NCBI GenBank assembly: GCA_031263295.1
Contig: JAISGC010000055.1
Coordinates: 1 to 47,889, forward strand
Reading direction: 5' to 3'
DNA: 47,889 nt
From: Rickettsiales bacterium
Lineage (GTDB): Bacteria; Pseudomonadota; Alphaproteobacteria; Rs-D84
Both the position numbers and the translations under genes were made by a program. Shown in pieces: positions 1 to 38,641 of this stretch; positions within the stretch are counted from its first letter, which is position 1, and each line of letters begins with the position of its first letter. Under the pieces are notes generated by a model. It did not search any database, had not been told where the DNA came from, and worked only from the letters and a program-made list of their open reading frames with translations.

Positions 1-1
1 G

Positions 2-769
2 AATATGCTCGGCGCCATCGCCGAGAACGATCGCTTCAAGCGCTCGAACCTGAATCTGTTCGAAATCGGCGTGGTTTTCGACGGCGTCGAGCCCGGGCAA
101 CAGCATAACGAATTGATTATTGCACGCACCGGCGGCGTACCGCCGCTGTCATCATCTGGCGCTGTTCCAGTTGGAAACTTTGGCGCCAATTTGGGAATCA
201 AACACGGCGTTCCTGCGACGATTTATTCCGTGCGCGAAGATTTGCTCGCGCTGTTTCCGGGCGCCGTTGTCGAGAACGATCCGTCGCCCGAAAAATGGGC
301 GCATCCGTTCCGCGCGGGACGCCTGCTCGTTGACGGGAAAGTCGTCGCGGTGTTTGCCGAGCTATCTCCGTTTGTTGCGAAAAAGTTCGGGATAAAAACG
401 AATGTCGAGATTGGGATTGTGCATAACGGCGACGCGCTGCCTGGTGGGGCGAGTTTCGATGAAACTCGCCGTCCGGCGAAGCCGGACAACAAATATTCGC
501 TCGCCGAGTTCCCGATGATAACGCGCGACTTCGCGTTCATAACGGATGCGGCGGCGGACGCTTTGATGGCGGCGGCGCGCGGCGCGGACGCCCGCATTTG
601 CGAGACGAATATCTTCGATGTCTTCGCTATGCCCGACGGCGCGCGCTCGGTCGCGTTGGAGATTGTGATTCAGCCCGATAGCAATTTGTCGGACGCGGAT
701 TTATTGGCGATACAAAACAAAGTTATTGTTGCCGCCGAAGCCCTTGGCGCAAAGTTGAGGGATAAATAA
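2..769 (+). CDS. pheT: phenylalanine--tRNA ligase beta subunit, C-terminal fragment (gene starts left of window)
   Basis: ORF is open at the left edge. The tail ..ITRDFAF..NIFDVF..GARSVALEIVIQP..LSDADL..GAKLRDK fits the C-terminal FDX-ACB pattern of PheT. Stop TAA at 767-769. Confidence 0.8.
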   Translation, partial: NMLGAIAENDRFKRSNLNLFEIGVVFDGVEPGQQHNELIIARTGGVPPLSSSGAVPVGNFGANLGIKHGVPATIYSVREDLLALFPGAVVENDPSPEKWAHPFRAGRLLVDGKVVAVFAELSPFVAKKFGIKTNVEIGIVHNGDALPGGASFDETRRPAKPDNKYSLAEFPMITRDFAFITDAAADALMAAARGADARICETNIFDVFAMPDGARSVALEIVIQPDSNLSDADLLAIQNKVIVAAEALGAKLRDK

Positions 770-10590: not shown

Positions 10591-10760
10591 GCCTGGTGGG
10601 GCGAGTTTTGATAAAACTCGCCAATTGCAAATTGGAAGGGGGCGAAGCCCCTCTGACAATTTGCAATTAAATTGAAAGCGATTTTCTTTTTATTTTCTCC
10701 GGGGCTTCGCCCCATCGAAAATAAAAAGGGTGTGTTTTACCAAACCACACCCCACCAGGC
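10591..10760. repeat. composite nested palindromic element bounded by gcctggtgggg / ccccaccaggc
   Basis: Contains hairpins ggcgagtttt-gat-aaaactcgcc, aattgcaaattg..caatttgcaatt, tttttatttt..ggggcttcgcccc..aaaataaaaa and ggtgtg..cacacc. The right half recurs at 44755-44844. Confidence 0.75.
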
Positions 10761-11868
10761 TCGACCAAAAAAACAACTGCCAACTAAAAAAAACTCCGTT
10801 TCCAAAAAGAAAACCGCCGCCAAAAAAACGGCGGTTAAAAAACGCGCAGTCAAAAAAAGCCCCCACCCAAGAGTTGCTACGGCTCGCTCCGCTCGCCAAG
10901 CAACTCTATCCCGCCCCCGCAAGCGGGGGCAGGAAAAGCGTTCGACGCGCCGTAAGATTATTCTCTATTCTCTGTTCTCTGTTCTCTTTTCTCTTAGTCT
11001 CTTATTCTCTTATTCTCTATTTATCCGCCCGGCGTGGACGGGCGGCGAATACATCGTCGCAAGCGGCGCGTCCGTATCGCGCGTTGTCGCGGACCTGAAC
11101 CAGGGCGATATTTTCAAGTTTTTAATCCGCGCGCGCGGCGGCCGGGTGATGGCAGGAACCTATGACATTCCCGAAAGCGCCAGCGTCTGGCGCCTGGCTC
11201 GGATGCTGTCCTTGGGCGAGATCGCGAGCGCATCGATTACTATCCCCGAGGGCCTGACCAGCAAACAAATCGCGCTGCTGCTGGGGGCGGCGCACGAATA
11301 CAAAGACGGCGAATTATTTCCCGACACCTATTCGATTCCAAAGGGTTCCGACCCGGCGCAGGTCATCGATATGATGAAGAAAAAAATGGACCGCGTGCGC
11401 GAGAACTGGGAACGGGCGGGCCGCCGTTTGCCCGCTCCGTTAAAAGACTGGAACGAGGTCATGACGCTCGCGTCGATTGTCCAAAAGGAAACGCCGCGCG
11501 CGTCCGAAATGCCGGTTGTCGCGTCGGTCTATCTGAACCGGCTGCGAAAAAAAATGCGGTTGCAGGCGGACCCGACGGTCGTCTATGCGATAACGGGCGG
11601 GCTCGGCGATATGCAGGGGCGCCCGCTGTTTTCCAAACACTTGCAGACCGCGAGCCCGTATAACACTTACCGCAACGCGGGTCTGCCGCCCGCGCCGATC
11701 GCGAATGTCGGAATGGACGCGATCGCGGCGGTGCTGAATCCGGCGGACACGAATTATTTATACTTCGTCGCAGACGGCACCGGCGGCCATAGTTTCAGCC
11801 GCACCCTCGACGAGCACAACGCCAATCGCAGCGTCTGGCGACGGATTAAAAAAAAGAACAATGAATGA
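10672..11868 (+). CDS. mltG: endolytic murein transglycosylase MltG (YceG); true start uncertain
   Basis: YceG domain: TIPEGLTSKQIA, LFPDTY, ASIVQKETPRASEMPVVASVYLNRL, SPYNTYRNAGLPPAPI. The first ~115 codons of the ORF are made of repeat elements. There is no in-frame ATG before the TM segment, so the start is TTG 10672 or an unidentified alternative. Confidence 0.85.
   Translation: MKAIFFLFSPGLRPIENKKGVFYQTTPHQARPKKQLPTKKNSVSKKKTAAKKTAVKKRAVKKSPHPRVATARSARQATLSRPRKRGQEKRSTRRKIILYSLFSVLFSLSLLFSYSLFIRPAWTGGEYIVASGASVSRVVADLNQGDIFKFLIRARGGRVMAGTYDIPESASVWRLARMLSLGEIASASITIPEGLTSKQIALLLGAAHEYKDGELFPDTYSIPKGSDPAQVIDMMKKKMDRVRENWERAGRRLPAPLKDWNEVMTLASIVQKETPRASEMPVVASVYLNRLRKKMRLQADPTVVYAITGGLGDMQGRPLFSKHLQTASPYNTYRNAGLPPAPIANVGMDAIAAVLNPADTNYLYFVADGTGGHSFSRTLDEHNANRSVWRRIKKKNNE
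10860..10932 (+). repeat. E1 element, copy 2 (in frame inside the mltG 5' ORF)
   Basis: cccccacccaag-agttgc-..ctcgccaa-gcaact-ctatcccgccccc-gcaa-gcgggggcagg, translated as ..SPHPRVATARSARQATLSRPRKRGQ.. Confidence 0.8.
10958..11031 (+). repeat. ATTCTCT/GTTCTCT heptad tract encoding the MltG membrane anchor
   Basis: attctct attctct gttctct gttctct tttctct tagtctc ttattct cttattc is translated ILYSLFSVLFSLSLLFSYSLFI, the only hydrophobic segment ahead of the YceG domain. Confidence 0.8.
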
Positions 11869-18150: not shown

Positions 18151-19149
18151 ATGAACAAAATATTTGCGGTGTTGGGCGGGGTCGGGGCGCTATGGTTCGG
18201 GCGAGACTTGTTGCTACCCATAATAACGGCGGTGTTTTTGTGGTATCTGACCATCGCCATCGGCTCTTACTATCGGCGCATCCTTAAAATAGGATGGCTG
18301 TCAAACGCGGCGGCGGGCGCGTCCTTGCTCGGCGTCGTCTGGGGATTCATCGAGCTGATTCGCCCGATGCTGTGGGACCTCTATAAACAGGCGCCGCAGA
18401 TTGCCGAAGGCGGCAAGCATCTTATCGCCGAGCTCTCCGAAATCGTCGGGACCGAGATTTCCTTCGCGGGCCTGCCGACATTACAGGAATCGATTATGGC
18501 CGCGGGCAACTCCTTGGCCTCGGGCGGCGCGGTTCTGGCCATGATAATAATCTATATGATTTTCATTTTCATAGAACAGGGTTCGTTCCCGAAAAAACTC
18601 CGCGCATTGTTCCCGCAGAATAAGCAGTTTGGAAAGGCGAGCTTCATACTGCACGCTATTGATTCCCAGATGAAAAAATATCTCGGCGTCAAGACCTTCG
18701 TGTCGCTGCTGCAAGGCTTCGCGTTTTATCTGTGCCTGGCGGTAATCGGGGTGCCGTTCGCAGCTCTATGGGGTTTCGGGCAGTTCCTGCTGAACTATAT
18801 TCCGACATTCGGCTCCATCGCGGCTACAACTCTGCCGATGCTCTATTCGTTCGCGATAAACGGCGACATAACCGATGTGATTCTTATCGGAATCTCGGGC
18901 GCGATTGTGAACTTGATATTCGGAAATATTCTGGACCCGAAGCTGACGGGCAAATCCTTGAACCTGTCGCCGCTGGCGATACTGGTCAGCCTGATATTCT
19001 GGGGGATGCTGTGGGGCAGCCTGGGGATGTTCTTCTCGGTTCCGATTTTGGTCGGCATCTATGTCGCGGCCGCCCAGTTCGAATGCACGCGCTGGATAGC
19101 AGTTCTGTTGTCCGCGGACGGACAGATACCGGATAAGAATGAAGAGTAG
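18151..19149 (+). CDS. AI-2E family (PerM/UPF0118) transporter
   Basis: Polytopic. Conserved tail ..NYIPTFGSIAATTLP..ILDPKLTGKSLNLSPLAILVSLIFWGMLWGSLGMFFSVPI. The TAG stop lies in the H7 arm. Confidence 0.8.
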   Translation: MNKIFAVLGGVGALWFGRDLLLPIITAVFLWYLTIAIGSYYRRILKIGWLSNAAAGASLLGVVWGFIELIRPMLWDLYKQAPQIAEGGKHLIAELSEIVGTEISFAGLPTLQESIMAAGNSLASGGAVLAMIIIYMIFIFIEQGSFPKKLRALFPQNKQFGKASFILHAIDSQMKKYLGVKTFVSLLQGFAFYLCLAVIGVPFAALWGFGQFLLNYIPTFGSIAATTLPMLYSFAINGDITDVILIGISGAIVNLIFGNILDPKLTGKSLNLSPLAILVSLIFWGMLWGSLGMFFSVPILVGIYVAAAQFECTRWIAVLLSADGQIPDKNEE

Positions 19150-19267
19150 AGAATAAGAGAAACGCAAACGCTTCGCGTTTGCAGAGAATAAGAGAATAGA
19201 ATTTGCTATCGCGCAATAACTTTATTTCAAGCTCAATTCTCTTATTCTCTCATTCTCTTATTCTCTA
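19146..19267 (+). repeat. heptad-arm element H7 (AGAGAAT units), non-coding copy
   Basis: agagaataagagaa-[cgcaaacgcttcgcgtttgc]-agagaataagagaataga - loop with gcgcaataac - attctcttattctctcattctcttattctct. Confidence 0.9.
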
Positions 19268-19277
19268 AAAATGGATT

Positions 19278-19808
19278 ATGATACTTTCTGGCCTACGAAT
19301 TCTTTTTTCGCCTTACGCATTGCCCGCGGTAATTTTCGCGGCGGGGTTTCTGGCGTTCAAGGCCGCGGTGCCCGAATGCGGGGCAATTGCGCCGGATGCG
19401 CAGATGTTCGTGCTGACCGGGGATGCGCGGCGGATTCCGTTCGCGCTGAAAATGCTCGACGATTATCCGAAGAGAAAATTATTCGTCATAGGCGCCGGGA
19501 CGCCCGCGATAGAAACGCCGCATCAGAACAGAATCGAAATCGAGAACAAATCGAAATCGACATACGAGAACGCGATTGCGATAAAACATATCGCGCGTAA
19601 AAAACTGCTGACATCGATTGTCGTTATAACGACCAGCGATCATATCAACCGGGCCATGTATCTGGCGCGGCGTCAGATGCCGATTATGAGCATCACCGCC
19701 TGCCCGGTGCCTCTATCGGGAATGCCCGCGGCGAAACGCCTGGACCGCTGGCTGACGGAATATGTGAAGTTTATCGGAACGATGCTGGGGATCAATTCCA
19801 AGGCATAA
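19278..19808 (+). CDS. DUF218 (YdcF/ElyC-like) protein
   Basis: N-terminal TM, then ..FVLTGDARRIPFALKML..KLFVIGAG..STYENA.. as in DUF218 envelope proteins. Confidence 0.65.
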   Translation: MILSGLRILFSPYALPAVIFAAGFLAFKAAVPECGAIAPDAQMFVLTGDARRIPFALKMLDDYPKRKLFVIGAGTPAIETPHQNRIEIENKSKSTYENAIAIKHIARKKLLTSIVVITTSDHINRAMYLARRQMPIMSITACPVPLSGMPAAKRLDRWLTEYVKFIGTMLGINSKA

Positions 19809-23605: not shown

Positions 23606-23700
23606 GAAAGTTCAATTTGCAAAGTGCAAAGTTCAATTGGATTTTATGTTCGCGTAGCGAACGCATAAATTGAACTTTGCACTTTGATAATTGCACTTTT
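23606..23700. repeat. heptad-arm hairpin element H12 (TGCACTT/TTGAACT units)
   Basis: gaaagttcaatttgcaaagtgcaaagttcaat - [tatgttcgcgtagcgaacgcata] - attgaactttgcactttgataattgcacttt. The same units form the Slt signal peptide at 36202-36238. Confidence 0.85.
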
Positions 23701-23751
23701 ATATTGCGCCTTCTCGATTTTTCCGCTACCCTGCCGCAAACAGGATTTCCT

Positions 23752-26128: not shown

Positions 26129-26806
26129 TCAGAAACTAATCCGCAATGATGCCGACACATTGTGCGACACAGGCGTGAAGTTTTTAACGGCGTCGAGCTC
26201 GTTGGGCAGCCAGCGGATGAATCTGTATGCGAGCCCCAGCGCCAATGAGCGATTGATTTCGACCGACACGCCGCCGATTAAATTATACGCGATGGGGGAA
26301 TATTTTGTTTTATCTGCGCCGACCCACTCAATTTCGCCCGCGCCGACGCCGAAGCCGACGAACGGGACGAACGGGTTGGTCTTGAACATCTGATATTCCG
26401 GGGACAATTTCGCGTCGAATATAAAGTTCGCGAATCCCCAGTGCCCGTCGCCGCGAATGTCGCCGTAATCCTCGCGCAGATTCAGATAGCTCGCCTCGAC
26501 CCGGAACGACCGCGCCAGCCGCAGCCCGACCGCAGCCGAAAAGCCGTCCATTGAATCGGCCTTCATTCCGCCCGCCGCATCCGCGAAATGCATATTCCAT
26601 CCGCCCTCGATATAGAATCTCTTCAAGGGCTCGGCCCCGGCCTGATAATCCTCCGGCTCGCCGTCGCGCGCGACGACATACTGGACATCGGCTTTGGCGG
26701 CAAAGCCGACAAAGCAAGAGAATAAGAGAATAAGAGAATAAGAGAATGGAGCGAAACGCAACCGCATCGCTTTAATTTTTTGCAAAAACATTGTAATGAA
26801 CTCCAT
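26129..26806 (-). CDS. beta-barrel outer-membrane protein (tandem paralog 1)
   Basis: MEFITMFLQKIKAMRLRFAPFSYSLILLFSCFVGFAAKA signal, ends ..SASLRISF. ATG and h-region lie in the arms of element H8. Confidence 0.75.
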   Translation of the reverse strand: MEFITMFLQKIKAMRLRFAPFSYSLILLFSCFVGFAAKADVQYVVARDGEPEDYQAGAEPLKRFYIEGGWNMHFADAAGGMKADSMDGFSAAVGLRLARSFRVEASYLNLREDYGDIRGDGHWGFANFIFDAKLSPEYQMFKTNPFVPFVGFGVGAGEIEWVGADKTKYSPIAYNLIGGVSVEINRSLALGLAYRFIRWLPNELDAVKNFTPVSHNVSASLRISF

Positions 26807-26853
26807 TCTCTTATTCTCTGCAAATGCGAAGCATTTGCGTTCTCTTATTCTCT
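26717..26853 (-). repeat. heptad-arm element H8 (AGAGAAT units) spanning the 5' end of the OMP gene
   Basis: On mRNA: AGAGAAUAAGAGAAUGGAG pairs perfectly (19 bp) with CUCCAUUCUCUUAUUCUCU. Side hairpin GCAAAUGCUUCGCAUUUGC. Confidence 0.9.
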
Positions 26854-26856
26854 AAA

Positions 26857-27627
26857 TTAAAAACTGCTCCTCCACGACAAGGACGCGCCGAGCAAGCCGA
26901 AGGTATTGCGGCCGTCCTCGAATCCGGCGGGGCCGGTCATAAACTCGTATTTCGCGGAAAGGTCGATCGCGTTCGTCTCGGTCATCAGGAACGAAAATCC
27001 CGCCGCCGCGCGGCCGCCCGCGATAAAGCCGGAAAAGCCCGTCGCCGCGAAATCCGCGTATCCGCCCGCCGCTCCTATGCCGATGAACGGCACGACCCGG
27101 CGGCGATACATAATATCGCCGCGCATTCTGTATCTGCGGGCCAGGTCGAAATAAAGCATCGCGTCGCCGCCGTCGATGTTCGCCGTGCCGCTGCCCGCGC
27201 TCGGGCTATCGGTCCAACGCAAGTCCTGGTGCCACAGGGCCAGTTCGCCGCGGGCCCATGACGAAAAGTTCGCGCCGAGGGCGAAGCGCTCGAAAAATCC
27301 CCAGTCGTATTCGACGCCCTGCTTGATGCCGAAGTTCGCGCCGCCGCCAAGCCGCACATAGAAATCGGTCGGAATAAATACATCCTGATCCGTCTCGACC
27401 GGGCCCTTGTCATAGACCGCATTGCCAAGGCTTCCCGCGGCCGCGGGCTTTTTCGCGCGCACCGCGATATAGTCCAACCCGCGCGCCGTCTCGCTGGTGA
27501 AAGCATCGTAATTTGCCGCGCCTGCGGCGCCGCAAAGAGAGAATAAGAGAATAAGAGAATAAGAGAATGGGGCCCGACGCAGCCGCAACGCTTTAATTTT
27601 TAACAAAAACAATTTAATGATTTCCAT
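26857..27627 (-). CDS. beta-barrel outer-membrane protein (tandem paralog 2)
   Basis: MEIIKLFLLKIKALRLRRAPFSYSLILLFSLCGAAGA signal, ends ..LSWRSSF. The only in-frame ATG lies in the H9 arm. Confidence 0.75.
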   Translation of the reverse strand: MEIIKLFLLKIKALRLRRAPFSYSLILLFSLCGAAGAANYDAFTSETARGLDYIAVRAKKPAAAGSLGNAVYDKGPVETDQDVFIPTDFYVRLGGGANFGIKQGVEYDWGFFERFALGANFSSWARGELALWHQDLRWTDSPSAGSGTANIDGGDAMLYFDLARRYRMRGDIMYRRRVVPFIGIGAAGGYADFAATGFSGFIAGGRAAAGFSFLMTETNAIDLSAKYEFMTGPAGFEDGRNTFGLLGASLSWRSSF

Positions 27628-27674
27628 TATCTTATTCTCTGCGAACGCGAAGCGTTCGCATTCTCTTATTCTCT
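27536..27674 (-). repeat. heptad-arm element H9 (AGAGAAT units) spanning the 5' end of the OMP gene
   Basis: AGAGAAUAAGAUAAUGG pairs with CCAUUCUCUUAUUCUCU (16/17). Side hairpin GCGAACGCUUCGCGUUCGC. Confidence 0.9.
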
Positions 27675-27681
27675 AACTTTG

Positions 27682-33578: not shown

Positions 33579-35197
<1,619 letters not shown>

Positions 35198-35377
35198 TTC
35201 TTTTTTATCGATTCTCCGTTCTCTGTTATTTGTTCTCTTTCTCATAAAAAGGTCCCTCCAAATCTGAGGGATGACCGGGGAGTTCTAAAATCAAATATGA
35301 AAAATGACCCCGCAGGCCTTCGGGTTTCCCCTGTTTCATAGCCAGCGGCTCCCCGGCCGAAGCGGGGGCATTGCGCA
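35198..35377 (-). promoter_or_regulatory. candidate riboswitch-like leader, motif copy A
   Basis: Minus strand: GGCCGGGGAGCCGCUGG ... GAACUCCCCGG (helix 35349-35356 / 35275-35282), then CCCUC-agauuug-GAGGG + U5. Related to 42116-42189. Confidence 0.4.
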
Positions 35378-36180: not shown

Positions 36181-37908
36181 ATGAAAAAACTTTTAACGAT
36201 TTTGATTGCACTTTGCACTTTGCAAATTGAACTTTGCGCGGCCGAGCCGTTGCCCACGATTTTGTCGGAGAACGACGCGGCGAATTACGCCAAGATTTTC
36301 TCGCTGCAAGACGCTGGCAAAATATCGGCGGCGGCGAAACTTGAAAAGGAACTCGAAAGCGACATCCTGATGGGCGAGGTTTTGTATCAAAGATATATGT
36401 CGAAAAATTACGCCTCCAAGGGTGTCGAGGTCGCCGAGTGGATGGAGAAATATTATAACCATCCGGGCGCGGAAACTATGTTCAAGCTGTCGATGCGGAA
36501 AAAAGTCTTGGCGCGCGAGGCGGCGCTGCCGACTATGGCGAGCGCGAAATACGACGGCGGCGCCTATTCCGAATCATGGACCACGCGGAAATATTCCGGC
36601 TCGACCGGCCGCGAAATCGGGCGATTCCAGGCGAACCTGAAACGGCGGAATCTCAAAACCTGCGCGACTATTTTGGAAAACAAAGGCGTCAAAACGAATG
36701 TGTCATGGACGGACTACGGGCGGCTGGCGGGGCGGCTCGCCTTCACTCTTTATAATGGCGGCGAGATGGAAGAGGCGACGAAATGGGGCGCGGTCGCGGC
36801 CGAACGCAACAGCGAGATTGGCCTGTGGACCATGGGTTTGTTGAGTTTTAAGAACGCGGACTTCGCGGCGGCGGAAAAATATTTCGCGGCGATGTTGGAG
36901 TTGGAGCACATCAATATGAACCGCAAGGTCGAGGCCGCATTCTGGGCGGGCCGTTCCGCGGACGAGGCCGACGACGGGCGCGCGGCGCGCAAACACTGGC
37001 GCTATGCGATGCAGAGGCCCGCGAGTTTTTACGGCGCTATGTCGGCGGCGGCGCTCGGGCGCGAGCCGGACTATGAGTTTTACGAAGATGTTATTTCGAG
37101 AGACGATATCGCCAATCTGATGAAGACGAAATACGGGCTGATTGCATTGGCCCTTTTGCAGGCCGGTCAGAACGAGCGGGCCGAGGGGCATCTGCGATAC
37201 TTGATTACGGACCGCGCGTCGGACGATTTGCTGCACGCGGTGCACGCGCTCGCGACCAGTGAGGAATTGCCGCGGACGGCGCTCGCGGTCGCGCCCATTA
37301 TAAAGGAGCGCGGGATTTTGGAAATCGACAGCAATGTGATCTTGTCGGCGCAGTTTCCGCTGCCGCAATGGGAGCCGCGCGGCGGCTGGGAAATAGACCG
37401 CGCGCTCTTGTTCGCAATCGCACGCCAGGAATCGCGATTTAAGACGAACGCGAAATCGCATGCGGGCGCGACGGGTCTTCTACAACTGATGCCGAAGACC
37501 GCAAAACTGACCGCGGTCAAAAGCGGAATCAAAATGAACTCGCTCGACCTGACCAACCCGGAGGACTCGATGTTCCTGGGCCAGCAGCATGTGCTCGATC
37601 TGTTCGCGCTTGAAAATGTCGACAACAATATTATAAAAATGCTGGTGTCATATAACGCGGGCAACGGGAACCTTCGCAAGTTCGAGCGGCGCTTCGAGAC
37701 GGACGATCCCCTGCTTTACATCGAAAGTTTCCACCTGCCCGAGACTCGCGGTTATATAAAAATCGTGATGTCGAACCTGTGGCTTTATCGCGCGCGTTTG
37801 GGCCAGCCGATGAGCAATCTGAACGATTTGGTTCACGGCCGCTGGCCGCGATACTCGGCGCATGATGACTACGCGAACCGGCGCAGCGAGGAAAAGAATA
37901 TAAATTAG
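36181..37908 (+). CDS. slt: soluble lytic murein transglycosylase (Slt70-like)
   Basis: Superhelical N-domain plus the SLT catalytic motif ..AIARQESRFKTNAKSHAGATGLLQLMPKTA.. The signal peptide MKKLLTILIALCTLQIELCAA is encoded by TGCACTT-type heptads. The TAG stop is in the H4 arm. Confidence 0.9.
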   Translation: MKKLLTILIALCTLQIELCAAEPLPTILSENDAANYAKIFSLQDAGKISAAAKLEKELESDILMGEVLYQRYMSKNYASKGVEVAEWMEKYYNHPGAETMFKLSMRKKVLAREAALPTMASAKYDGGAYSESWTTRKYSGSTGREIGRFQANLKRRNLKTCATILENKGVKTNVSWTDYGRLAGRLAFTLYNGGEMEEATKWGAVAAERNSEIGLWTMGLLSFKNADFAAAEKYFAAMLELEHINMNRKVEAAFWAGRSADEADDGRAARKHWRYAMQRPASFYGAMSAAALGREPDYEFYEDVISRDDIANLMKTKYGLIALALLQAGQNERAEGHLRYLITDRASDDLLHAVHALATSEELPRTALAVAPIIKERGILEIDSNVILSAQFPLPQWEPRGGWEIDRALLFAIARQESRFKTNAKSHAGATGLLQLMPKTAKLTAVKSGIKMNSLDLTNPEDSMFLGQQHVLDLFALENVDNNIIKMLVSYNAGNGNLRKFERRFETDDPLLYIESFHLPETRGYIKIVMSNLWLYRARLGQPMSNLNDLVHGRWPRYSAHDDYANRRSEEKNIN

Positions 37909-37999: not shown

Positions 38000-38641
38000 A
38001 TGAAAACAATTCCAACCTTTGACCTTGAACGCGAGTGCGGCGGAATCGTCGCGGGCGTCGACGAGGCCGGGCGCGGCCCGCTGTGCGGTCCGGTCGTTGC
38101 GGCTGCGGTTGTTTTTCCTGCCCCCGCTTGCGGGGGCGGGATAGATTTCGTTAGCGAGCAACGCGAGCTTACGAAATCTTGGGTGGGGGCCCACCCGCTC
38201 ATTGCCGATTCCAAACAACTCACCGCGAAACAACGCGAGGCGGCGTTCGAATGGATAATCGCAAATTGCGCGGTCGGCGTCGGGCAATGCAGTCCCGCCG
38301 AAATCGACGAGATAAATATTTTGCAGGCGTCGTTGCTCGCGATGAAGCGCGCTATCGCCGCCCTGCCCCGCGCGCCTGATTTTTGTTTAATCGACGGGAA
38401 CAAAATGCCCGCGGATATTGTCGGCCGCGCGGTTGTAAAGGGCGATGCGAAATCTGTTTCTATTGCGGCCGCGTCCATTGTAGCGAAAGTCTCGCGCGAT
38501 AAAATTATGGCCGAACTCGCCCGCGACTTTCCGGAATACGGATGGGACAAGAACGCGGGCTATCCGACCCCGGCGCATTACTCCGCCATCGCCGCGCACG
38601 GCATAACGAAGCATCATCGAAAAACATTTAGATTAGTTTGA
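38000..38641 (+). CDS. rnhB: ribonuclease HII carrying an in-frame repeat-element insertion
   Basis: GVDEAGRGPLCGPVVAAAVVF ... DSKQLTAKQRE ... IDEINILQASLLAMKRA ... DGNK ... ASIVAKVSRD. About 30 residues separate AAAVVF from DSK, and most are encoded by element E1. Confidence 0.9.
   Translation: MKTIPTFDLERECGGIVAGVDEAGRGPLCGPVVAAAVVFPAPACGGGIDFVSEQRELTKSWVGAHPLIADSKQLTAKQREAAFEWIIANCAVGVGQCSPAEIDEINILQASLLAMKRAIAALPRAPDFCLIDGNKMPADIVGRAVVKGDAKSVSIAAASIVAKVSRDKIMAELARDFPEYGWDKNAGYPTPAHYSAIAAHGITKHHRKTFRLV
38117..38189 (-). repeat. E1 element, copy 3, in frame inside rnhB
   Basis: Reverse complement = cccccacccaag-atttcg-..ctcgctaa-cgaaat-ctatcccgccccc-gcaa-gcgggggcagg. Translated as PAPACGGGIDFVSEQRELTKSWVGA. 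Confidence 0.85.

Follow-up and report, generated by a model that had tools for sequence, protein, structure and literature searches.

In a 47,889-nucleotide contig of a Rickettsiales bacterium (JAISGC010000055.1, assembly GCA_031263295.1; this whole stretch is called the window below), three envelope proteins have their N-terminal hydrophobic segment written in tandem 7- or 8-nt DNA units. These are the lytic transglycosylases MltG and Slt and a conserved secreted protein of 269 or 285 amino acids. The arrays lie within the open reading frames (ORFs), they stand where orthologues have ordinary leaders of similar length and they are copies of repeat arms of the genome itself. We consider it probable that such repeat arms have overwritten the hydrophobic core (h-region) of existing leaders, were tolerated or exapted and are now used as ordinary Sec signals or membrane anchors. 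The tandem-unit coding of the three segments had been proposed by a sequence-only reading of the window, and it was borne out by tandem array calls with Tandem Repeats Finder (TRF), by comparison with dinucleotide-preserving shuffles of the window, which served as chance expectation, and by the limits of the protein domains.

In mltG the array encodes the only transmembrane (TM) helix of the protein. The features of this gene are as follows.

10672-11868, plus strand: mltG (YceG-family lytic transglycosylase), longest ORF; Pfam YceG at residues 129-386, E 1e-75
10672-10760, plus strand: dispersed repeat of ~80 nt holding both candidate mltG starts; 22 high-scoring segment pairs (HSPs), with 11 non-self at 86-98% identity among the matches listed
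10859-10945, plus strand: GC-rich palindromic dispersed element of ~85 nt, in frame, MltG residues ~63-91; 83 blastn HSPs genome-wide
10957-11025, plus strand: array-coded single TM anchor of MltG, IILYSLFSVLFSLSLLFSYSLFI, residues 96-118; from TRF and unit families

Five 7-nt units (in order ATTCTCT, ATTCTCT, GTTCTCT, GTTCTCT and TTTCTCT) are followed by three 8-nt units (TAGTCTCT, TATTCTCT and again TATTCTCT), and TRF reports the array at 10958-11018 with period 7, 8.1 copies and 87% matches, including indels. The units belong to the AACAGAG and AAGAGAAT families of the genome. The array is about as long as two standard repeat arms, and the 20-22 residues encoded by it have the size of a membrane-spanning helix. 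An inverted-repeat check found no inverted partner near it, which makes it a solo arm. The encoded segment consists of RRK, 22 hydrophobic residues and RP, with RRK inside and RP outside and no cleavage site. Orthologues of mltG are present in 30 of 31 relatives, and in all 11 MltG orthologues examined a Lys/Arg-rich cytoplasmic tail precedes a single TM helix in the same position. Upstream of the anchor, TTG 10672 and GTG at ~10732 are the sole canonical starts in frame; from ~10732 to 11145 no ATG, GTG or TTG stands in frame and initiation at the next GTG-ATG, near 11146, would remove part of the YceG domain, so that a real start downstream of the tract is excluded. The cytoplasmic tail itself (10672-10945) is a mosaic: residues 3-30 of the ORF match elsewhere in the genome, and the GC-rich element, which contains an inverted repeat at 10909-10934, lies between the native Lys-rich tail and the TM helix. 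Unlike the leader arrays, this element is an insertion that adds residues relative to the orthologues. It recurs in RNase HII at 38113-38145.

For slt the array forms the core of a signal peptide.

36181-37908, plus strand: slt (soluble lytic transglycosylase), ATG 36181 behind GGAAAGGA; Pfam SLT, E 2e-21
36202-36238, plus strand: array-coded h-region of the Slt signal peptide, ILIALCTLQIELC; from TRF and as the twin of a hairpin arm

The leader reads MKKLLTILIALCTLQIELCAA, with codons 8-19 built of TTGCACT, TTGCAAA and TTGAACT units (TRF: 36206-36237, period 7, 4.6 copies, 76% matches), and its layout is MKK, LLTILIALCTL and QIELCAA|EP, the bar marking the predicted cleavage site. No inverted partner was found here either by the inverted-repeat check. 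The core is identical at 30 of 31 positions to the reverse complement of 23606-23640, the left arm of a non-coding palindrome, and both copies have the same irregular order of unit variants, which argues for copying rather than local slippage. As the conserved mature end (A)EPLPTILSE follows directly after the leader, the slt start cannot lie downstream of the tract; most orthologues examined start with MKK or MKR.

The third gene carries a whole palindrome at its 5' end, unlike the solo arms of mltG and slt.

34388-35245, minus strand: conserved secreted protein without Pfam domain; orthologues in 5 of 8 family members searched
35144-35177, minus strand: pyrimidine-rich 3' palindrome arm encoding an 11-residue h-region; from TRF
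35208-35238, minus strand: purine-rich 5' arm of the palindrome, encoding a basic n-region RKRTNNRERRI if the start is 35245; from inverted repeat and fold

The protein has 285 residues when read from ATG 35245, which has GGAGG 9 nt upstream, or 269 residues from ATG 35197; the position of the GGAGG suggests that both arms of the palindrome may be translated. The repeat-coded leader spans 35144-35197, the TRF array shows 75% matches and the two arms (35147-35177 and 35208-35238) are 77% complementary. The RNA of the palindrome folds with -35.6 kcal/mol (z -2.4), placing the internal ATG in the loop. From this ATG the layout is MSNRK, a 13-residue h-region and CGEAVA|AP. Alignments with orthologues begin at residues 18-19 of the 285-aa form, inside the leader. 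Read by eye with a Kyte-Doolittle window, the leaders of Slt, the 269-aa protein and MltG thus show the basic n-region, the h-region and the A-x-A-like cleavage region (or, for the anchor, its absence) expected of a Sec signal peptide or a type II anchor, and the repeat-coded peptides are putative ordinary Sec or signal recognition particle (SRP) targeting signals or anchors.

The same units are found throughout the genome, mostly outside of genes. The assembly, a termite-gut metagenome-assembled genome of which the window is contig C92, comprises 987 kb (0.99 Mb) in 114 contigs with 54.6% GC and an estimated completeness of 88%. It holds ~550 short arrays of 6-8-nt tandem units, typically of ~4 units (~30 nt) and usually paired as palindromes. 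Among 1280 TRF rows genome-wide, periods 7 (420), 6 (184) and 8 (147) are strongly over-represented. The units are AT-rich (for example AAGAGAAT, AACAGAG, AATGAGC and AAAGTGC) and fall into about a dozen families or flavours, and most arrays are intergenic inverted pairs with tandem-unit arms. Chance periodicity was rejected as an explanation: with up to 2 mismatches TTCTCTNTTCTCTNTTCTCT has 6 matches in the window against 0.00 expected from the shuffles, and with up to 3 mismatches TTGCACTTTGCACTTTGCA has 5 against 0.02. That the leader units recur as non-coding hairpin arms, as the sequence-only reading had it, is seen in the first two of the following features; the other two are coding cassettes.

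19146-19267, no strand: non-coding palindrome of AGAGAAT(A) flavour between ORFs 18151-19149 and 19278-19808
23606-23707, no strand: non-coding palindrome of TTGCACT flavour, found by pattern matches; left arm almost identical to the Slt leader array
26716-26877, minus strand: full ~160-nt cassette with all of the parts described below, heading an outer-membrane protein (OMP) gene
27538-27679, minus strand: second copy of the cassette, heading the neighbouring OMP gene

The ~160-nt cassette is composed of a left arm, the mini-hairpin GCAAACGCTTCGCGTTTGC, a second left arm ending in ATG, the n-region MELVKRFLLKIKALRLRRAP and four ATTCTCTT units. More than 20 near-full-length copies with 77-87% identity are present in this genome and none was found in 30 relatives, the four congeners included. 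Left arms of palindromes often provide the stop codon of the upstream gene. At five loci (C73:26360-26390, C76:2533-2564, C73:35876-35907, C107:6402-6432 and C109:3485-3520) the upstream gene takes its final residues (..ENKRIRE) and its TAA stop from a purine (AAGAGAAT) arm, so that one element can close one ORF and open the next. Many contigs of the assembly (C18, C35, C73, C76, C16, C71 and C79) end inside AAGAGAAT palindromes; the elements are therefore under-counted in the assembly and some leader-bearing genes are truncated.

The strand on which an arm is read decides what it can encode. The ATTCTCT strand had been described as stop-free and as coding for Leu, Phe, Ser, Tyr and Ile, which is correct: (ATTCTCT)3 gives ILYSLFS, a heptad of generic hydrophobic character. 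For the complementary AGAGAAT strand a TAA every 7 nt had been claimed. A stop does recur with this spacing, but it is TAG, the TAA belonging to the 8-nt unit AAGAGAAT and not to (AGAGAAT)n. Moreover, not every purine strand is closed, as the AGAGAAC variant lacks the T and hence the stop and is translatable as an n-region rich in Arg, Glu, Asn and Gln.

Genome-wide, arrays are concentrated in leaders. Using crude gene calls (longest ORF plus codon log-odds, 951 genes), we find arrays overlapping 38 of 299 first N-terminal hydrophobic segments and 5 of the 451 remaining ones (Fisher p = 1.6e-11), and at least two of these five internal cases (BamA and MltA) are really N-terminal. About 8 of the 38 hits were set aside, being either arrays of other periods or ORF over-extensions across 5' hairpins (MnmE, UDG, FabH, C73_28526); MnmE, UDG and FabH have no evident export signal. 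This leaves about 30 unrelated envelope proteins, and ~11% (roughly one in nine) of N-terminal hydrophobic segments are array-coded. Pfam names among the array-headed proteins are POTRA (BamA), TolB, S41, M23+LysM, LolA, MltA and SLT_2 (MltB), and OMP barrels are found as well. Paralogy was rejected as the cause of the shared leaders, because the mature parts of these proteins share no blastp match at 1e-5. The leader arrays are of the same size as all others (4.34 +/- 0.91 versus 4.28 +/- 0.64 units), with the 8.1 copies of MltG standing apart. A full palindrome is present at 24 of 32 leader arrays, with the array as its 3' arm, and many of these palindromes belong to the ~160-nt cassette; the other eight (MltG, Slt, TolB, BamA, MltB and three more) are solo arms. 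Leaders with a solo arm keep a short native-looking n-region, mostly MKK, and a cleavage region, and only the h-region is repeat DNA.

Not every flavour is used. Leaders are built of ATTCTCTT (17), GCTCATT (5), CTCTGTT (3-4), ATTCTTT (1) and GCACTTT (1-2), and they are limited to flavours having a stop-free strand with a mean hydropathy of at least 1.5. Five flavours with stops on both strands (AACGACT, AATTATG, AATGACT, AACCCCT and ACTAGTC) account for 155 arrays and not a single leader, although they form hairpins like the leader-forming ones. This speaks against the alternative, also raised by the sequence-only reading, that the repeats were derived from leaders.

In order to follow the direction of change we compared the leaders with those of relatives. 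The closest public relatives found in a scan of genome contigs are termite-gut metagenome-assembled genomes labelled 'Rickettsiales bacterium'. None of them is closer than 85% DnaN identity, and the top four matches are apparently the four congeners of our genome (G000), labelled G001-G004. A scan of metagenome contigs for same-species sequences that would allow a strain comparison found none, the best MltG match having 52% identity. Non-repetitive DNA codes for the TM helix of MltG in G002-G004 and six further genera, for the signal peptide of Slt in G002, G003 and G005-G008, and for the leader of the 285-aa protein in G004, G006 and G008. As most relatives have such ordinary leaders, similar in length and position, the repeat-coded state appears to be derived, and for MltG, Slt and TolB the similar length points to replacement and not insertion. 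An alignment of orthologues had been suggested as a check of exaptation, and this is its outcome.

TolB provides the clearest view of such a swap. The G004 protein is 80% identical overall, and the flanks ATGAAAAAACT... upstream and ...GCG GAR TTR AAG GTC downstream are shared. The ~30 nt between these flanks are ordinary in G004 and (TCTGTTC)x4.5 in G000, and the leaders have nearly equal lengths (20 versus 19 residues). The h-region of the G004 gene (C10) reads TTGTCTC TTGCCGC TTGTCTC, maybe a decayed heptamer array, in which case repeat-coded TolB leaders would be older than they appear.

The units themselves are private to single genomes. TTCTCTN x3 has 40 matches in G000 and the TTGCACT-type 51, with none in the four congeners. 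Conversely, CTTCATT (129 matches) and ATTGTTM (41 matches) occur only in G001, where the former is used in the MltG and Slt leaders and the latter in the orthologue of the 285-aa protein. Thus G001 has the leaders of the same three proteins coded in its own private units, and FFILHSSFFI is found in several further signal peptides of this congener. In G011 (C12), which belongs to another genus, the MltG TM helix FTFFTIFTLFTIF is coded by 4.9 copies of the 9-mer TATTTTCAC, an in-phase repeat and as such an independent case of a repeat-coded anchor. Taken together, the ordinary leaders of orthologues, the TolB swap, the Slt arm copy, the private units and the restriction to certain flavours make the change from repeat arm to leader appear much more likely than the reverse, and the repeated exaptation of arms as export or anchor sequences that had been suggested for the window is supported, fitting all of the tests made: the ordinary leaders of orthologues, the private units, the Slt arm copy and the exclusion of starts downstream of the tracts.

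How repeat DNA might make a working leader follows from unit length and composition. Since 7 and 8 are not multiples of 3, the pyrimidine strand, which is stop-free in several flavours, is read in all three phases in turn and gives a peptide of Leu, Phe, Ser, Ile, Tyr, Cys and Val with a mean Kyte-Doolittle hydropathy of 1.5-2.2. One arm encodes 10-11 residues, which matches a Sec h-region in length, and two adjoining arms encode 20-22 residues, which matches a TM helix. In MltG a double arm encodes the single N-in anchor, and in Slt a solo arm encodes the h-region between the retained native MKK n-region and the cleavage region. A palindrome read purine-first yields Arg, Lys, Glu and Asn and then Leu, Phe and Ser, hence an n-region plus an h-region. 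In the 269/285-aa protein the 3' arm of the 5' palindrome encodes the h-region and the purine arm the basic n-region, the latter provided that ATG 35245 is used. As to the entry of arms, our guess is that solo arms came in through ectopic conversion or template switching and that whole cassettes were inserted. h-Regions require only hydrophobicity, and the arrays would persist for this reason; neutral tolerance may be a better description than adaptation.

The main rival to this replacement of h-regions by repeat arms is phase variation. Here the arrays would be contingency loci, in which slipped-strand gain or loss of one 7- or 8-nt unit shifts the frame and switches envelope proteins on or off, as known for the CTCTT repeats of opa. 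The unit lengths would suit such switching and the arrays are positioned exactly as the opa repeats (PMC3960869). Two leaders are indeed off by one unit. An M23 peptidase of G000 (C31:14387-15285, minus strand) has a leader of MELVKMFSLKIKTQRLRRA plus GTTCTCT x3, in which the cassette ATG misses the frame of the conserved mature end DCGVRGV by a single 7-nt unit; an additional unit would restore a complete signal peptide, and the orthologues in G003 and G004 have intact leaders. In the Slt orthologue of G001 (G001:C36) the conserved ATG AAA AAA (MKK) is off-frame by one CTTCATT unit, which may reflect a phase-OFF state, a pseudogene or an artefact of the consensus. These two cases indicate that the arrays are mutable and leave room for a switching role. 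However, the arrays of mltG, slt and the 269-aa gene are imperfect (87%, 76% and 75% matches, with units of 7 and 8 nt mixed) and hence poor slippage substrates, the number of units stays tightly around 4 whether an array is coding or not, and most copies are non-coding palindromes. Furthermore, 49 arrays have an in-frame start upstream versus 20 flagged as having none, among which a single one is a convincing frameshift. The carriers also include BamA, TolB, LolA and MltG, whose roles in the envelope are essential or central, and a cell would pay for turning them off. We therefore regard contingency loci as an unlikely explanation. A role of the palindromes primarily as regulatory structures in RNA or DNA (upstream terminators or translational hairpins for secretome genes), with leaders as a by-product, has in its favour that three quarters of the leader arrays belong, as the 3' arm, to a complete palindrome, that the hairpin of the 269/285-aa gene has a fold of -35.6 kcal/mol that places the internal ATG in the loop, that the ATG of the ~160-nt cassette is the last triplet of the left arm and would be paired, and that left arms often end the upstream gene. 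Such a role is possible for the palindromic leaders, but it is inapplicable to the solo arms of MltG and Slt, and equally of TolB, BamA and MltB, which have no partner to form a hairpin with. The z-score of the 269/285-aa hairpin is modest, no T-run follows the arms, and species-private flavours together with a cassette absent from congeners are unlike a conserved regulatory system, so that this explanation is improbable for the leaders as a whole. Least credible, and very improbable in general, is an artefact of composition or annotation, with T-rich second codon positions mimicking periodicity or tracts lying in 5' untranslated regions. A few of the 38 hits are such over-extensions across upstream hairpins (MnmE, UDG, FabH). 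Against it stand the near-absence of matches from the shuffles, the rarity of arrays in other hydrophobic segments, the use of exactly the genome-private units and the placement of the tracts inside proteins by domain limits and orthologue alignments. For mltG, slt and the 269/285-aa gene it was excluded by the shuffles, the domain limits, the orthologue alignments and the identity of the Slt core to a hairpin arm.

Several observations weigh against the overwriting of h-regions by repeat arms that we favour. The mltG start is uncertain, since TTG 10672 and GTG 10732 are located within a dispersed repeat and have no clear Shine-Dalgarno sequence. The MltG helix is rich in Ser and Tyr, with a mean hydropathy that is still ~2.1, and the Slt core contains Gln and Glu (LQIELC). 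The genome-wide count depends on crude gene calls and includes the doubtful hits mentioned above. The 28-fold preference for N-terminal over internal segments is beyond what tolerance alone explains. Likewise, there are the two leader arrays off-frame by one unit, neither of them in mltG, slt or the 285-aa gene of G000. Finally, the route by which arms entered genes is one that we only infer, and a Pfam search for Y1_Tnp (RAYT/IS200) gave no match in G000-G004, all of them incomplete, compared to 6 of 14 control genomes.

Among known systems, Rickettsia palindromic elements (RPEs) are unique-sequence palindromes of 100-150 nt that add a surface segment to a protein. They were reportedly described by Ogata et al. 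2000 in frame within protein-coding genes. Like RPEs, the arrays are a dispersed multi-copy palindromic repeat of a reduced-genome alphaproteobacterium that stands in frame in ORFs and is translated without disruption. Unlike RPEs, their arms are tandem 7/8-mers, and these replace an existing h-region or TM helix at about equal length and with a predictable function. Homology to RPE-1..10 is unlikely, judged from the privacy of units among congeners. Signal peptides are also said to tolerate random sequences, as Kaiser et al. 1987 reportedly found with a laboratory library for yeast invertase; this would explain how a hydrophobic peptide of any sequence can direct export, and here the replacement is instead natural and genome-wide.

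In Neisseria opa genes CTCTT pentamers form coding repeats in the leader-peptide region (PMC3960869). As in opa, the tandem repeats are rich in pyrimidines, have a unit length not divisible by 3 and supply, once translated, the hydrophobic portion of a leader, and a change by one unit shifts the frame. In contrast, opa has one perfect tract in one paralogous family with proven high-frequency switching, and our genome has about five flavours of 7-8 nt and ~4 units in ~30 unrelated, largely housekeeping envelope genes, with most array copies being non-coding palindromes and switching at most a possibility. The long, perfect, slippage-prone tract typical of opa is not found in mltG, slt or the 269-aa gene. 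Heptameric arrays are also known from Xanthomonas (GGGAATC) and Nostoc (GGGGAYT) (Rehm et al. 2015, PMC4692102), and short tandemly repeated repetitive (STRR) sequences from cyanobacteria. The abundance of 7-nt arrays, the preference for ~4 units and the frequent inverted pairs are similar there (PMC4692102), but our units are AT-rich and of many flavours and not G-rich, quadruplex-forming GGGNATC. The terms 'signal peptide' and 'transmembrane' appear nowhere in that paper (PMC4692102). With their imperfect tracts, the replacement of existing segments and the AT-rich units, the arrays are thus not a strict member of the opa, RPE or Xanthomonas/Nostoc class. Full-text literature searches led to opa, to Haemophilus heptamer switches in promoters or untranslated regions and to the Xanthomonas/Nostoc heptamers, and also listed a paper on a palindromic amphipathic repeat coding sequence (PMC2996958); a description of heptamer arrays encoding signal peptides or anchors was not found in these searches.

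In this reduced genome around one N-terminal targeting segment in nine, those of BamA, TolB, LolA and MltG included, would thus have been swapped for near-identical repeat peptides. This would show, in a natural setting, how small the sequence requirements of Sec signal peptides and single-pass anchors are, and it suggests that selfish simple repeats can remodel proteins by replacing a functional segment, beyond the addition known from RPEs. The turnover appears to be fast, as a congener has different private units in mltG, slt and the 285-aa gene. For practical work, automated gene calling may place the starts of such genes wrongly and repeat masking may hide the genes, and leader frameshifts by one unit can pass for pseudogenes. 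If slippage of units is reversible, the arrays could also be an opa-like source of surface variation for the symbiont. A much broader idea is that palindromes of tandem heptamers act quite generally as a self-renewing supply of export signals, with each species continually rewriting the h-regions, and at times whole 5' ends, of its secretome genes from a private pool, with the purine/pyrimidine palindrome pre-adapted to this use and with slippage as a low-level switch for dispensable envelope proteins. We regard this as doubtful; if it were true and enzyme-driven, it would be a new mode of protein-targeting evolution, widespread in uncultured bacteria.

Next to the 285-aa gene the window contains a further repetitive ORF. 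It lies at 34032-34481 (minus strand) and encodes an extended collagen-like stretch of G-x-y, and several tandem repeats of 9 and 18 nt (33952-34153) overlap with it.

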